This document shows positions 19,781 through 26,546 of a stretch of 64,000 nt of DNA, one piece after another (position 1 is the first letter of the stretch; each line of letters opens with the position of its first letter). Made by a program: the position numbers and the translations under genes. The notes under the pieces are model-generated. The model saw only the letters and a list, made by a program, of their open reading frames with translations. It did not search any database and had not been told where the DNA came from. The DNA is from Panacagrimonas sp. (lineage in GTDB: Bacteria; Pseudomonadota; Gammaproteobacteria; Nevskiales; Nevskiaceae). The stretch is from assembly GCF_965216805.1 (NCBI RefSeq), contig NZ_CBDCGN010000003.1:953841-1017840 (forward strand), given 5' to 3'.

Positions 19781-20599
19781 TCAACGCTGACATGCCGGGC
19801 AGTAGCAGCTTGCGCGTTGGCCGATCACGACGCGACGGATCAGGGTTTGACAATGCCGGCAGGGCAGCCCCTGGCGGCCATAGACGTAGAGGTCCTGCTG
19901 GAAGTATCCGGATTCGCCGTTGGCCCCTGCAAAATCTTTCAAGGTGGTGCCGCCTTGCACGATGGCGGCCTCGAGCACCTCGCGGATGCGTGCGGCCAGC
20001 CCTGTGTACTCGGCGCGGGTGACCCTGCCGGCCGCGCGGCCGGGGCGAATACGGCAGCGAAACAGCGCCTCGGCGGCGTAGATGTTGCCGGCACCGACGA
20101 CGACCTGTCCGTCCATGATGAAGTTCTTGACCGCCGCGGTGCGCCCGCGCGACAAGCTGTAGAGATAATCGCCGTTGAAGGCGGGATCGAACGGTTCCGG
20201 CCCGAGATGACGCAGCAGCAGGTGATCGGGCTCGTTGGCAGCCCACAGCAGGACGGCGCCGAAGCGGCGCGGATCGTGAAAGCGCAGCAACTGTCCGCTG
20301 TCGAGTTCGAGATCGACGTGATCGTGCTTCACCGTCGGCGTGTGCCGGTCCAGCACCCACAGCCGGCCCGACATGCCCAGGTGCAGCAGCAGGCGGTCGC
20401 CGTTGTCCAGCAGCAGCAGCAGATACTTGGCACGGCGCTGTACCTGATCGATGCGCCGTCCCTGCAGGCGCGGTTCGAGATCCGCTGGTATCGGCCAGCG
20501 CAGGCGCCGGTCGCGCACCTGCACGGCAGTCAGTCGGCGACCGACGACATGCGGCTCGATGCCGCGGCGGACGGTTTCGACTTCGGGAAGTTCGGGCAT
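19781..20599 (-). CDS. mutM: formamidopyrimidine-DNA glycosylase
   Basis: MPELPEVET start, RRAKYLL, HLGMSG, DPRRFG, GAGNIYAAEALF, and a C4 zinc finger (CRHC...YCPACQ). Confidence 0.97.
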   Translation of the reverse strand: MPELPEVETVRRGIEPHVVGRRLTAVQVRDRRLRWPIPADLEPRLQGRRIDQVQRRAKYLLLLLDNGDRLLLHLGMSGRLWVLDRHTPTVKHDHVDLELDSGQLLRFHDPRRFGAVLLWAANEPDHLLLRHLGPEPFDPAFNGDYLYSLSRGRTAAVKNFIMDGQVVVGAGNIYAAEALFRCRIRPGRAAGRVTRAEYTGLAARIREVLEAAIVQGGTTLKDFAGANGESGYFQQDLYVYGRQGLPCRHCQTLIRRVVIGQRASCYCPACQR

Positions 20600-20740
20600 G
20601 GCGCGCATGCTCGGCGGCCTTCGGCCGCGCGTCCAGTGCGGCAGCCGTTGGGCCTCCGCAAATTTCCCACGCGGATGGGCGGCGTGCGGACGAACTCGCG
20701 TAGCACCGTACCGGGGTTGCACCATCTAACGACCGACACA

Positions 20741-20764: not shown

Positions 20765-20838
20765 TTGGCACACGAGCCCACCCGCAGCTGACTTTTGAGC
20801 CCGTTTCTGCGCAGCGATGCCGGGGACGGCGAACCTAA

Positions 20839-20865
20839 CAAAAAGCCCCCGGCATAGCCGGGGGC
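20839..20865 (-). terminator. Rho-independent terminator of the large surface-protein gene
   Basis: An 8-bp stem gcccccgg/ccgggggc with a 5-nt loop is followed on the minus strand by a U-run. It lies 26 bp past the stop at 20892. Confidence 0.8.
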
Positions 20866-20891
20866 TCGTACTGCAAACGACCTCAGATCGT

Positions 20892-23800
20892 TCAGGGTTG
20901 CTCGGTCACCAGCAGGGTCGGGCCGGACACCGTGGCCATGCCACTGGGCAGGACCTGTTCGCCGGTGTCGTCACCGGTGGCATCGACCGCGGTCAGCTGG
21001 AACTGGTAGGACTGGGTGCCAGCTCCACCGGGACCGGCCGGACCCTGCGGGCCCTGCGGACCTTGCGGGCCGGTCGGACCCTGCGGTCCTGTCGGGCCTT
21101 GCGGACCAGCGGGGCCTTGCGGACCCTGTGGTCCCGGTTCACCCGGAGGGCCGGCAGGCCCCGCCGGACCCGGGTCGCCGTCGTCGCCGTTACAGCCGGC
21201 CAGGCCCAGGCTCAGCACCGCCGCGGCCATGACCAGCATGAAGCGCTGGCGCGAACTCAATCCGCCGACCATGCCGAGCAGCAGCAGGCCGCCGCCGCCC
21301 GCGGCCAACAATGCGGCGCCAGGTGACATGGCGCCGGTCGGCGCCTGGTTGAGCGCCAAGTCGGCGGCGAAGTCCACCGACAGGATGTAGCTGCGCGTCT
21401 GCCCGACAGCAAAGTTCACCGGCGTGCCGAACGTCACCGTGAAGGTGCCGCCCAGGCCCTTGCCGGCACCGTCGATGGTCACGTTGGCACCGGCCACGGC
21501 CATCTCGCCGGTGTCGATCTCGCCGTTGCCGTTGGCGTCCAGCACCAACTGCGCGCCGAACACATCGGCACCGAAGTCGCCGCTACCGCTGAGGGTGCCG
21601 CTGAAGCCATCCAGGGTGACGGTTTCGTCCGCGCTGTTGGTCAGCGAGAACGCCAGCGCCTCCACGTCCTGGTCGCCGGCGTTGACGTTGACCAGCACGC
21701 CAGCATCGCCATTGCCGACCAGCCCGATCATCGGACGGCCCGCAAACTCGAACGCACCGATATCGCAGTCCATGTTGCCGTCAGCATCGCCATCGACCGG
21801 ACGCGGTTGGCCGCGCTGATCGAGGTTGTTGATCGGCGCCGCCGCACAGGCCGCGTTGTCACCGGCATCGACCGCCGCACTGCCGGCCGACAGCGCCAGG
21901 GTCAGCGTCGGGCCGCCGTTGTCGGCCAGCATCGTGGCCACTCCGCCCATGTCGGCGATCAGATTGTTGTCACCCGCCGAGACCATGCCGGACAGCTGGG
22001 CATCGGTGGCGCCGCTGTTTTGCGCGATCAGCGTATTGGTTGCGTTGAACACCGAGGTGGCATCGGCCAGTTGCACGCCACCGCCGGCCGTGTTCGCCAC
22101 GTTGCCGGCGATGGTGGCGTTGGTGGCATTGACGATACCGGCCGGACGGATCAGCACGCCGCCGCCGCCAGTGAGGTTGGTGACGTTGCCGAACACGGTG
22201 GAGTTGGCGAGGTTCAACGTGGAGCCACCGAACACCCACAGGCCGCCGCCCTCGTTCTGCGCCTCGTTGTTGGAGACCGTGGAGTTCGCCATCGTCATCA
22301 CGGTCTGGCCGCCGGTGATGTGCACGCCGCCGCCATTGCCCGGCGTGTTGCCGGTGATGTTGCTGTCCATGGTGACCGCATCGAAGTTCACCACGGTGGC
22401 AGCCATGGACGACACGTCCTCGTAACCCCCTCCCGCACGTGACGCCGTGTTGTTGTTGATCACCGAGTCGGTGATGGTCACCGCCGGGCCGTTGAGGTTC
22501 ATCACGCCGCCGCCGGAACCGGAGTCGCCATTGGCCGCGTTGTTGTTGATGGTGGCGCCTTCGACGACCAAGGTGCCGCCATTGTTGAAGATACCGCCGC
22601 CGCCGTCGTCCGCGGCATCGCCCTGCGCCACGTTGTCGGAGATCACGGTGCCGCCCGTGTCGCTGGGCTGCACAGTCATGGTGCCGGTGGCATTCCACAA
22701 GCCGCCGCCTTCCTGGGCCGCAGCATTGCCGTCGATCAATCCGCCGTTGACGGTGACTGTGCCGCCGGGGCCGGTGATGTGCAGACCGCCGCCGTTGCCG
22801 GGTGCCGCCACCGCGCCCGTGCCGACGCCGGTGCCGTTGTTCTGCAAGGTCACGTCGGTGAGTGTGGTGATGCCGATCAGGGCCTCGATGCCGCCGCCAG
22901 CGCGATTGGAGATGTTGTTGGCGATCATGGTGCCGGTCACGGTCAACGCGGCGTCGTTGTTCGTCATGCCGTTGTTGAAGATGCCGCCGCCCGAACCCGC
23001 GGTACCCAGCGCCGCGTTGCCGGTGACCGAGCCGCCTACGACGATGAGCGTGCCGCCGTTGTTGAACAATCCGCCGCCGCCGTCGTCTGCCGCATTGCCA
23101 TTCGCGGCATTGTTGGCCACCACGGTATCGGTGACTGTCATGGTTCCGCCGCCGTTCCACAAGCCGCCGCCCTCGGTCGCGGCCACGTTGTTGCGCACCG
23201 TGGAGTCGATGATCTCGGCATTGCCGTTGCCGGTGATGTGCATGCCGCCGCCGTTGCCACCGCCGCCGCCGCCGATGGTGTTGGCGATGTTGCCGTCAGC
23301 CGGCGTATCGCCGCCGAGGGTGACGTTGGTCAGCGTCGCGGTCGAACCAGCGCGGGTCTCGATTCCGCCGCCGGCGCGGTTGGCGCGGTTGTCGCGAAGA
23401 ATGACGTCGGTCGCTTCAAGAATGGTGCCTTCGTTCATGAAGATGCCGCCGCCGGAGGCGACGCTGCCCGTGGCCGGGGTGTCGTCCATATTGAAGACAC
23501 CGGCGTCGTTACCGTCGATGAGCGTGCCGGTGATCACCACCGATCCTCCGGCTGCATCGCTGAAGATGCCGCCGCCGCCCTGGGCCATGGCGCCCGCATC
23601 AGCTGCACCGCCGATGGCGGTGTTGCCGGAGATATCCCCGCCGGTGATGGTCATGACGCCGCCGCCGTTCCACAGCGCGCCGCCTTCCACTGCAGAGTTT
23701 TCGCTGAAGCTGCTGTCGGTAACGGTGATGTTGCTGGCATTGGTGATGTGGATGGCGCCGCCATTGCCTGGAACGCCGTTGGCCACTGCGGCGACGGCTA

Positions 23801-24527
23801 CGTCGTTATTGCTGAACGTGGAGCCGGACACCGTGGTCGCAGCGGTCGCACCGAAGATTTCGATGGCGCCGCCGGCGCGAGCCGCCGTATTGCCGGTGAA
23901 CATGCTGCCCGAGATCGACAATGTGGTGCCGCCGTGGATGATGGCGCCGCCGCTGCCGGACATGGTGGTCGCAGCATTGTTGCTGAACGTGGAGTCCACG
24001 ATGGTCAGCGCGCCGAGGCTCTCGACCGCGCCGCCGTTGGTCATACCACCGCCGGTGCCGACATTGCCGGTCACCGTCACCGAGTCCAGTGTCACGGTGG
24101 TGTCCGCGCCGATGCTGATCGCACTGCCGCTGGCGGCGCTGCCGCCGGTCAGGGTCAGGCCCTCGATCACCACGCCCGTCGCAGACGGCGAGCTGACTGA
24201 CAGGATTGCACCGCCGTTGCCGTCAATGGTGACGTCACCCGTAATGCTGACGTCGTCGGTGATGGCCGGCAGGGGCGAGGTCAGGGTAATGGACGCCACG
24301 CCGGGGCCGAAGGTGATGGTGTCGCCTTCGAGTTCGCCGGCCGGCGCATCACCGGCGGCCATGTTGGTACTGGCCGCCTGAATCGCTTCGCGCAGGCTGA
24401 TTTCGCCGTCGACTGCGACCGTGTCTGCAACGGTGGTGACGACGTAGTCGGTTGCCAGCGCTGGTGCGGACAAAGCCAATGCAGCGGCGGCTGCCGCCAG
24501 ACGCTGCGGTAAGGTTGAGGATTTCAC
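20892..24527 (-). CDS. large secreted beta-helix surface protein: CSLREA-like N-terminus, polymorphic-membrane-protein repeats, choice-of-anchor Q domain, Ig-like domain, hydrophobic hairpin, lipobox and collagen repeat
   Basis: Signal peptide, then [10 protein letters not shown]...ISLREAI, many GGAI/GGGIFN/N-x-A repeats, and [13 protein letters not shown]...DQRG...DIGAFE. The C-terminus has LSLGLAGC followed by Gly-X-Y repeats. Confidence 0.9.
21027..21188 (-). repeat. collagen-like Gly-X-Y repeat (about 18 triplets)
   Basis: The translation [54 protein letters not shown] gives 9-bp periodicity in the DNA. Confidence 0.9.
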
Positions 24528-24752: not shown

Positions 24753-26546
24753 TCAGTCGTTAGCCACCACCGGCGTGGAACTGAGTACCTCGTAGGCATC
24801 GGTCTGCCCTGCGGCGATCTTGTGCGCGCCGGCGACGCGCAGCGGCACCATGCCTTCGCGAATGGCCTGGCGGCGCAGATCGGCGATGTCGCCCTGGCGG
24901 TCGATGAGGCGTTTCAGGCCCAGGCTCAACGGCATGATCTCGTACAGGCCCAGGCGACTGAGATAGCCGGTCTCGCGGCATTCCAGGCAACCCACGGCCT
25001 GGCGGATTTCAGTTGGCGGCGACAGATTTTTAGCCTCGCCGACCAGTTCGTTCCAGGCTTCCGGATCAACCGTAGCGGGCATCTTGCAGTGCGGGCACAG
25101 GCGTCGCACCAGGCGTTGCGCCACCACGCCGAGCAGCGTGGCCTTGATCAGGTAGGGCGGCACGCCGAGGTCAAGCAGGCGCGTGACCGCGCTGGGCGCA
25201 TCGTTGGTGTGCAGGGTGGACAGCACCAGGTGTCCGGTGAGCGCGGCCTGCACCGCGTTCTCGGCGGTTTCCAGATCGCGGATCTCGCCAATCATGATGA
25301 TGTCCGGGTCCTGGCGCAGCAGCGCGCGCACGCCGTTGGCAAAGGTCAGGTCGATGGCGGTATGCACCTGCATCTGGTTGAACGCCGGCTCCACCAGTTC
25401 GATGGGGTCTTCGATGGTGCAGACGTTGACCTCCGGCGTGGCGAGCTGCTTGAGGCTGGAGTACAGCGTGGTGGTCTTTCCCGAGCCGGTGGGGCCGGTG
25501 ACCAGGATGATGCCGTGCGGCTGGCGGATCATGTCGTTCCAGCGCTGCGAATCTTCGGCGGAGAAACCCAGCGCAGAAAAATCGCGCAGCAGCACTTCGG
25601 GATCGAAGATGCGCAGCACCATCTTTTCGCCAAAGGCGGTGGGCAGGCTGGAGCCGCGAAGCTCGATTTCCTTGCCCTCGGGCGAACGCGTCTTGATGCG
25701 GCCGTCCTGCGGCTTGCGCTTTTCCGCTACGTCCATGCGCGCCAGAATTTTTATGCGACTGCTCACCGCCACCATGACCGGGGTCGGCATCTGGTAGACC
25801 TCGTGCAGCACGCCGTCGATGCGGAATCGCACCTGGCCGGTTTCGCGCCGCGGCTCCAGATGGATGTCGGATGCGCGCGACTCGAACGCGTAGCTGAGCA
25901 GCCAGTCGACGATGGCGACCACGTGCTGGTCGTCGGCCGTGAGCTTGCCGCGCCGGCCCAGCTCCATGAGCTGTTCCAGGTTCTGCATGCCGCTGGGCGC
26001 GACTGCGCGGCGCTCTTCGTTGCTGGCCTTGACCGAACGCGACAGGGCGTAGAACTCCACCAGGTAGCGCTCGATGTCGTCGGGGCTGGCCAGCACGCGC
26101 TTGATCGATTGCGGCACGATGCGCGCGAGTTCGGTTTCCCACTCGCGCTCCAGAGGCTCGGCGGTGGCGACGACGATCTCCGTGGGCGATACCTTCACTG
26201 GCAGCACACGGATGCGCGAGGCATAGGCGTAGGGCATCACCGAAGTCACCTTGGCGACGTCGATGGCCAATGGATCGATGCGTATCCAGCCTATCTGGTG
26301 TCTGGCGGCCAGCCATTGCAGCAGCGCGTCCATGCTCAGGCGCGCGCCCGCACGTCGCGGGTCCGGCCATTCCTGCTGCGCCAGCAGCGACAGCGGATGT
26401 CGCGGCTTTTCGCGCAAGCCGGCGAGCTTGACCTGCAGCTCGCGGCCCTGGGCGACGTCGATCAGGCCGTCGTGCAACAGGCCTTCCACCAGCTCCTGCA
26501 GGTTCAGACGACGCTCGACGCCGGGAGATGCGGATGCGATGGCCAT
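24753..26546 (-). CDS. GspE/PulE/PilB-family secretion ATPase (orphan)
   Basis: ASDIHLEP, RFRIDGVL, PQDGR, Walker A GPTGSGKTT, TIEDPIE, LRQDPDIIMIGEIRD, TGHLVLSTLHTND, and a Cys4 motif (CPHC...CLEC). Confidence 0.92.
   Translation of the reverse strand: MAIASASPGVERRLNLQELVEGLLHDGLIDVAQGRELQVKLAGLREKPRHPLSLLAQQEWPDPRRAGARLSMDALLQWLAARHQIGWIRIDPLAIDVAKVTSVMPYAYASRIRVLPVKVSPTEIVVATAEPLEREWETELARIVPQSIKRVLASPDDIERYLVEFYALSRSVKASNEERRAVAPSGMQNLEQLMELGRRGKLTADDQHVVAIVDWLLSYAFESRASDIHLEPRRETGQVRFRIDGVLHEVYQMPTPVMVAVSSRIKILARMDVAEKRKPQDGRIKTRSPEGKEIELRGSSLPTAFGEKMVLRIFDPEVLLRDFSALGFSAEDSQRWNDMIRQPHGIILVTGPTGSGKTTTLYSSLKQLATPEVNVCTIEDPIELVEPAFNQMQVHTAIDLTFANGVRALLRQDPDIIMIGEIRDLETAENAVQAALTGHLVLSTLHTNDAPSAVTRLLDLGVPPYLIKATLLGVVAQRLVRRLCPHCKMPATVDPEAWNELVGEAKNLSPPTEIRQAVGCLECRETGYLSRLGLYEIMPLSLGLKRLIDRQGDIADLRRQAIREGMVPLRVAGAHKIAAGQTDAYEVLSSTPVVAND

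Follow-up and report, generated by a model that had tools for sequence, protein, structure and literature searches.

How does a secreted protein come to carry what looks like a lipoprotein signal near its C-terminus? This question is raised by a gene on the minus strand of a 64,000-nucleotide stretch of the genome of Panacagrimonas sp. (contig NZ_CBDCGN010000003.1; we call the stretch the window and count coordinates from its first letter). The gene, at 20892..24527, has a GTG start codon and encodes 1211 amino acids, and neither the list of open reading frames (ORFs) nor direct reading of the DNA revealed a stop codon or frameshift in it. At the end of the protein a first transmembrane helix (TM1), a basic loop, a second helix (TM2), a lipobox, a collagen-like run and a short tail follow one another. 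We consider it nearly certain that this module is real and that its two-helix hairpin is an insertion in a beta-sandwich domain.

The elements of the module, and the part of the sandwich that precedes them, are as follows. The "99 tails" are those of the window protein and of 98 relatives found by the profile search described in the next section.

21369..21740, minus strand: last beta-sandwich, N-terminal part, residues 930-1053, with final strand SYILSVDF; eight strands in the AlphaFold2 model (82-92 on its confidence scale); homologous to tandem domains of giant proteins
21258..21317, minus strand: TM1, residues 1071-1090, putative stop-transfer helix from periplasm to cytoplasm; an equivalent hydrophobic segment is present in 99/99 aligned tails
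21243..21257, minus strand: SSRQR, residues 1091-1095, predicted cytoplasmic basic loop and n-region of the internal lipoprotein signal; Arg fills its two best-conserved columns in 73% and 81% of tails
21204..21242, minus strand: TM2, residues 1096-1108, 13-residue h-region, by direct reading
21192..21203, minus strand: lipobox LAGC, residues 1109-1112, with the Cys1112 codon TGT at 21192-21194; Cys conserved in all 99 tails
21018..21188, minus strand: collagen-like linker of 19 uninterrupted Gly-X-Y triplets, residues 1114-1170; matches PF01391; lineage-specific
20895..21017, minus strand: tail of 41 amino acids, residues 1171-1211, with motifs YQFQLTAV and GPTLLVT; predicted final strands of the split beta-sandwich, from a hairpin-deleted profile and the AlphaFold2 model

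An earlier note on this DNA had described the same order of elements, with about 18 triplets and a 40-residue tail. We recovered every element, and the lipobox between TM2 and the collagen run is real and canonical, with its Cys codon exactly where that note had put it. The note was also right that the protein has a normal N-terminal signal peptide. SSRQR, TM2 and LAGC together provide the positive n-region, h-region and lipobox ([LVI][ASTVI][GAS]C) of a lipoprotein signal, but they occupy residues 1091-1112 of 1211 rather than the N-terminus, and 116 residues come after the basic cluster, which is therefore not terminal. The genome encodes LspA (TIGR00077, 131 bits) and Lgt (TIGR00544, 262 bits), and the predicted topology (exported passenger, stop-transfer TM1, Arg-containing loop, TM2) would fit processing by these two enzymes, as the note had proposed. 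The Gly-X-Y run is rich in Pro and Gln and scores 29.6 bits against the Pfam Collagen model, whose gathering score is 27.2.

Conservation of the C-terminal module

A six-frame search of 40 related genomes, with subsequent ORF extraction, turned up twelve proteins that have this layout in a single open frame; they come from eleven genomes of the same order (G013, G028 with two copies, G034, G016, G039, G014, G026, G033, G038, G025 and G036). The G013 copy is 90% identical, and G013 alone shares the module within the genus. Named related records with this layout are metagenome-assembled genomes (MAGs) of Panacagrimonas sp., Abyssibacter sp. and Salinisphaerales, and a locus search with a five-sequence alignment gave 10 loci. 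Across an alignment of 13 sequences, the columns without variation are an Ala and a Gly where TM1 begins, a single Leu, a single loop Arg, and the Cys; TM1 of this clade begins with a conserved A-x-x-G or Gly run, a motif that is specific to the clade. No Met or other start codon is conserved before TM2 in the relatives aligned, which argues against TM2 being a signal peptide encoded by a gene of its own. The earlier note had allowed for a missed stop codon, a frameshift, or a fusion with a gene that relatives keep apart, but all the relatives have a single open frame and the tail is never a separate gene.

For a wider search we built a profile (A5) of four rows in which the collagen columns were treated as insert states, and compared it to 1.84 billion cluster representatives. 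This gave 473 matches with E <= 1e-3, including 146 with E <= 1e-10; look-ups of clusters yielded no informative annotations. With residues 1000-1211 as query, collagen proteins dominated the matches from a set of 5.8 billion proteins, and nothing useful came out of that search. The best 150 of the 473 A5 matches fell into two classes. The first comprises 98 proteins, of 147-1878 amino acids, that have the complete module at their extreme C-terminus; these representatives (<= 50% identity) make up the 99 tails together with the window protein. The second consists of giant, hairpin-free proteins of up to 5449 amino acids, in which the pre-hairpin part of the profile matches 5-29 times in tandem.

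The Cys is present in 99/99 tails (97 placed by alignment, and two, MASC and AASC, by inspection), which is far beyond chance, and which answers the question of its conservation in homologs that the earlier note had raised. The lipobox consensus is L-[ATS]-[AGS]-C, with A, G or S at position -1 in 91 of the 99 and mostly Leu at -3. The strict lipobox pattern fits 75/97 tails, and the residue after the Cys (position +2) is Gly or Ser in 70/97. Every loop contains 2-7 Lys or Arg residues. TM1 has nothing conserved across the 99 tails beyond its hydrophobicity.

The linker between the Cys and the next conserved strand is variable, with a median of 16 residues and a range of 6-66 (61 in the window protein), and the whole tail after the Cys has a median of 50 residues (99 in the window protein). 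Runs of at least 12 Gly-X-Y triplets occur among the 99 tails only in the window protein and in P0129 (the protein of G016). A collagen linker is kept in the window protein, G013, G028, G034, G016 and two MAGs; among the 99 tails, linkers of this type are limited to this clade and one further representative. The alignments indicate that the collagen segment is a lineage-specific enlargement of a linker that is normally about 16 residues long.

The gene has a sporadic distribution. Among 300 evenly sampled Gammaproteobacteria, the full module was confined to three genomes: the window's own, G026 with two copies, and G090 with four (C206, C246, C92 and C436; one G090 match contains a TAA stop codon). 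A search of the window's genome for a second such tail found none.

A beta-sandwich split by the hairpin

We removed the columns between the VDF strand and the TYQ strand from the profile and used the resulting 163-position, hairpin-deleted profile to search a planctomycete ORF and 19 tandem-repeat proteins. It gave 229 domain matches; in 156 of them the alignment crosses the junction unbroken and reaches the last eight profile positions, with a length equal to the profile span–for example, the hairpin-free protein P0157 reads YDFTLNIFGGETFQARFANLTHLNLTGATSG...PISGGTMTVSN, and its segment ...ENWLVMYDFTLNIFGGETFQARFANLTHLNLTGATSGQPITAGGSVPISGGTMTVSN lines up with the window's SYILSVDF and, past the insertion, with the tail. 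The unmodified profile gave paired adjacent matches in the planctomycete protein. Since the profile crosses the junction in domains that have no hairpin, we read TM1, loop, TM2, lipobox and linker as an insertion into a loop of the last beta-sandwich, of about 150 residues, with the tail apparently supplying its final strands.

The sandwich domain itself (21369-21740 plus 20895-21017 in the window, and proteins P0121-P0174) is marked by the motifs FSGxLxGxGD, LDxNGNG, YxVxVDF, TYQxxLTxV and GLPxxGPxITV. It has no Pfam model, and looks like an uncatalogued repeat domain that occurs in 5-29 tandem copies in the giant proteins.

We modeled the last 332 residues with AlphaFold2 (AF2), using eight aligned sequences, and also modeled the tail alone. 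In the 332-residue model the eight-stranded sandwich has predicted local distance difference test (pLDDT) values of 82-92, and the tail strands (model residues 292-306 and 325-329) have values of 88-90. The helices and the collagen segment are mostly below 50 in this monomer, as is the collagen segment in the tail-alone model. The difference in confidence between the tail strands in context and alone is consistent with packing of the tail on the sandwich. Foldseek searches of the PDB with the model retrieved generic beta-sandwiches only (CBM3-like and Ig-like), all with E >= 4e-3; three of these matches, covering 282-286 alignment columns, are a weak hint that sandwich and tail align as one unit.

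Relationship to a catalogued anchor model

The only anchor model to match the window protein is NF058595, "invert_tail" (lipo-invert putative C-terminal anchoring domain; NCBIfam release 20.0, June 2026). The match spans profile positions 13-89 of 113, including both helices, and the window protein has the architecture of the model: an exported protein with a helix, a basic loop, a Cys-bearing lipobox helix and a short C-terminal tail. In a scan of the whole genome this locus was the best match to NF058595 and the sole one to cover both helices. The other matches cover the lipoprotein-signal half only and are ordinary lipoproteins, and the same half-matches occur in all 14 control genomes. Relatives of the window protein score 14-28 bits, all below the cut-off of 37 bits, and none of the 300 sampled Gammaproteobacteria has a protein above it. 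A homology link to the model is provided by P0175, which is hit by the A5 profile with an E-value of 9.7e-17 and, at 37.5 bits, reaches the NF058595 cut-off; eight other diverse tails fall below the cut-off or have no match.

The earlier note had set this tail apart from the C-terminal sorting signals known to its author. That view holds for the literature, where we found no paper on such tails, but not for the databases, since NCBIfam already holds NF058595. In the literature searched, no paper mentions the lipo-invert name or the NF058595 accession, the model has no attached publication or experiment, and searching for lipoboxes that are internal or C-terminal brought up these words in their ordinary senses only. 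The tail type is catalogued by NCBI curators and unpublished, and the window protein is a below-threshold, gammaproteobacterial variant of it with a collagen-like tether. A 1985 paper in the Journal of Biological Chemistry has a title stating that internalized prolipoprotein signals are modified and processed in Escherichia coli and Bacillus subtilis (cited in PMC2945643).

Proposed mechanism and alternatives

We propose that the N-terminal Sec signal exports the protein until TM1 stops transfer, so that the Arg-containing loop would stay in the cytoplasm. TM2 would then re-insert as an internal lipoprotein signal peptide, carrying the remaining chain across the membrane again. Cys1112 would receive diacylglycerol from Lgt, and a cut by LspA just ahead of this Cys would yield a passenger of about 1100 residues that ends in the TM1-loop-TM2 hairpin, and a 99-residue lipopeptide. 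Because the hairpin, lipobox and linker lie inside a loop of the sandwich, the lipidated fragment would supply the last strands of the passenger's final domain and should stay bound to the passenger, the two chains being held by strand complementation. The passenger would thus be tethered twice, by the hairpin and by the lipid. In this clade, the normally short Gly/Ser/Pro linker between lipid and strands has grown into a collagen-like spacer of about 55 residues; because the collagen segment sits at the position of that short tether, we read it as an elongated, stiffer spacer. Fully extended, about 55 residues would measure about 15 nm, by our own estimate at about 0.29 nm per residue. We also looked in the gene neighborhoods for a conserved partner such as a protease, sortase or outer-membrane barrel and found none common to different clades, which points to housekeeping enzymes.

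We regard this mechanism as a whole (lipidation by Lgt and LspA, cleavage inside a domain, and strand complementation) as somewhat probable. A bolder version is tentative and, on balance, rather doubtful: the housekeeping lipoprotein pathway would serve as a sortase-free means of C-terminal lipid anchoring, LspA would cut inside a folded sandwich, and a triacylated 99-residue fragment would hold the passenger of about 1100 residues by strand complementation only, with a collagen-like rod of about 15 nm between lipid and strands. Such a rod could trimerize three anchors, or could allow Lol to place the lipid in the outer membrane, away from the TM hairpin, so that the rod bridges the periplasm; the final membrane location is presumed in this scheme.

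A plain two-helix membrane hairpin, with an unlipidated Cys and an uncut chain, could also tether the domain through the loop insertion. This architecture alone would anchor the protein, and double anchoring by hairpin and lipid seems redundant, but a plain hairpin offers no reason for the invariant Cys, for the A, G or S that precedes it in 91 of the 99 tails, or for the Leu at -3. It also leaves unaccounted for the Gly/Ser-rich linker, which is like that of a mature lipoprotein and begins with Gly or Ser at +2 in 70 of 97 tails, in a genome that has both Lgt and LspA; we therefore think it unlikely. The earlier note had seen the point of the design in a lipid-anchored, trimeric collagen stalk, released from a polyprotein and functioning separately from the passenger. 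The uninterrupted, Pro-rich run of 19 triplets does exceed the Pfam threshold, and the linker is kept in several relatives. However, about 96 of the 99 tails lack the collagen segment, long Gly-X-Y runs are confined to the window protein and P0129 among them, the linker has a median of only 16 residues, no trimerization domain was identified, and the conserved part of the tail is its last ~40 residues, which belong to the passenger's last domain. Because those residues form the final strands of the preceding sandwich, the product is likely to be a split domain that keeps passenger and lipopeptide together, and an independent stalk is very improbable.

Alternatively, TM1 and the basic cluster might be a classical C-terminal sorting signal for a dedicated sortase-like enzyme. 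The cut would detach the passenger from the hairpin and leave it attached through the lipidated fragment alone, which Lol may by then have moved to the outer membrane. TM1 is oriented as in GlyGly-CTERM and PEP-CTERM signals and starts, in this clade, with the conserved A-x-x-G or Gly run; the passenger bears a choice-of-anchor Q domain, and a long spacer would make sense if the lipid were in another membrane. Against this, no PEP, GlyGly or other curated CTERM model matches the window (E <= 1), relatives show only VPLPA-CTERM at 13 bits versus a cut-off of 25, TM1 has no motif shared by the 99 tails, and no sortase-like gene is a conserved neighbor, although the genome was not searched for rhombosortase or exosortase. 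We give this explanation little credence. As for an artifact, the basic loop, TM2 and lipobox would by themselves make a perfect lipoprotein signal, with TTG and ATG codons nearby, and a missed stop codon or frameshift could have fused a secreted protein to a downstream lipoprotein gene. The comparative data refute such a fusion, leaving it practically no chance: more than 110 independent sequences share this single frame, relatives conserve no start codon at this point, and the tail is homologous to the end of a domain that begins upstream of the hairpin. We also rejected an internal translation start at the TTG or ATG before TM2, which lacks both a conserved start codon in relatives and a good Shine-Dalgarno sequence.

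Several points weigh against the proposed lipidation, cleavage and strand complementation. Lipidation and cleavage are inferred from sequence for every member of the family. Docking of the tail on the sandwich is inferred from model confidence values and homology only, and the tail modeled alone still gives a hairpin, with pLDDT of about 70 and no residue at 90 or above. The score of the window protein on NF058595, 23.2 bits over profile positions 15-89 for a 175-residue fragment and 24.3 bits in the genome scan, falls short of the cut-off of 37. A second anchor made of lipid looks redundant if the inner membrane retains the hairpin, and the scheme does not account for the route by which a large beta-helix passenger would reach the surface of a diderm cell.

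Gene layout and neighboring genes

The other features of the gene are as follows.

20892..24527, minus strand: whole gene, encoding a secreted protein with a CSLREA-type N-terminal region, a Gly/Asn-rich repeat passenger, a choice-of-anchor Q domain, the split beta-sandwich and the anchor tail
24453..24527, minus strand: Sec-type N-terminal signal peptide, residues 1-25, ending ALA|TD; read directly off the translation
20843..20867, minus strand: intrinsic terminator hairpin, 25 nt past the stop codon, with an 11-bp stem (9 GC pairs) and a T-rich tail

The choice-of-anchor Q domain (NF041518 in NCBIfam, residues 867-928) scores 60 bits against a cut-off of 25, and the relative P0123 scores 57.9 bits on the same model. 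The CSLREA_Nterm model (TIGR04214) scores 22.7 bits, below its cut-off of 25. The passenger (21723-24452, minus strand) contains 27 GG[AGS][ILVM] motifs within a Gly/Asn-rich repeat, and seems to resemble a parallel beta-helix with repeats of the polymorphic-membrane-protein type. Residues 1-935 have no sequence relative in the PDB. No Pfam domain was found in the passenger at E <= 0.1, Collagen being the sole Pfam match of the protein. The only paralog of the passenger in the genome is a 750-residue protein without an anchor. Opposite the collagen region, the plus strand has two ORFs of 169 and 124 amino acids (20817-21390), whose Pro/Gly/Arg-rich translations mirror the Gly-X-Y repeat; it is almost certain that neither is a gene. 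In relatives, antisense frames of this kind likewise turn up when the tail is used for six-frame searches.

Immediately upstream and in the same orientation is a gene (24753-26546, minus strand) for a 597-residue type II secretion/type IV pilus ATPase (PF00437, 420 bits) with an MshEN domain (PF05157). A secretion ATPase beside a large secreted protein could be meaningful or a coincidence, and relatives do not conserve this pairing. Downstream is the gene for formamidopyrimidine-DNA glycosylase (mutM/fpg; 19781-20725, minus strand), separated from the anchor-tail gene by the strong terminator. As listed, the mutM ORF has about 42 residues ahead of its Pfam domain, and the true start is probably later.

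Significance and comparison with known systems

What is new here is the indication, from profile alignments, that the part of the protein after the Cys is the last strands of the preceding domain and not the free end of a stalk. If the internal lipobox is used, it would be a natural case of Lgt and LspA acting about 1100 residues from an N-terminus, with the cut falling within a domain, and would amount to a route of C-terminal lipid anchoring without a dedicated sortase, of which we found no description in the literature searched. The split-sandwich design predicts that the two chains stay together. The Panacagrimonas/Salinisphaerales clade, which the curated NF058595 model misses, places the tail in Gammaproteobacteria, where Lol sorting and an outer membrane raise the question of the protein's destination. 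It also shows that a collagen-like spacer can replace the tether, a natural length variant that would be useful for testing the role of the linker. For annotation, such genes should not be split in two, and the tail should not be named a collagen adhesin.

The collagen-like proteins Scl1/Scl2 and Lcl share with the window protein an uninterrupted, Pro/Gln-rich Gly-X-Y run, and their models give weak matches over 45-85 residues. The window protein differs in having only 19 triplets, no recognized trimerization domain and a score of 42 bits against a cut-off of 325, and its segment sits where a flexible lipoprotein tether would be. GlyGly-CTERM/rhombosortase, PEP-CTERM/exosortase and LPXTG/sortase systems likewise have a tripartite C-terminal signal, with a helix followed by a basic cluster, and passengers with "choice-of-anchor" domains. 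Unlike these, the window protein has no signature motif, further residues follow its basic cluster, no processing gene is linked to it, and attachment of the lipid would use the housekeeping lipoprotein pathway. The classical N-terminal lipoprotein signal, processed by Lgt, LspA and Lnt, has the same positive n-region, 13-residue h-region, LAGC and Gly/Asp-rich stretch after the Cys, and the enzymes are encoded in this genome. In the window protein, however, about 1100 residues precede the signal, among them a stop-transfer helix, and cleavage would give two chains, with the "signal peptide" left on the passenger. Finally, the NF058595 lipo-invert domain likewise sits at the very end of a secreted protein and has, in the same order, a hydrophobic helix, a basic loop, a Cys helix resembling a lipoprotein signal, and a short tail. 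The window protein scores below the cut-off of that model, and its tail is longer (99 residues, versus about 25-50) because of the collagen-like insert.

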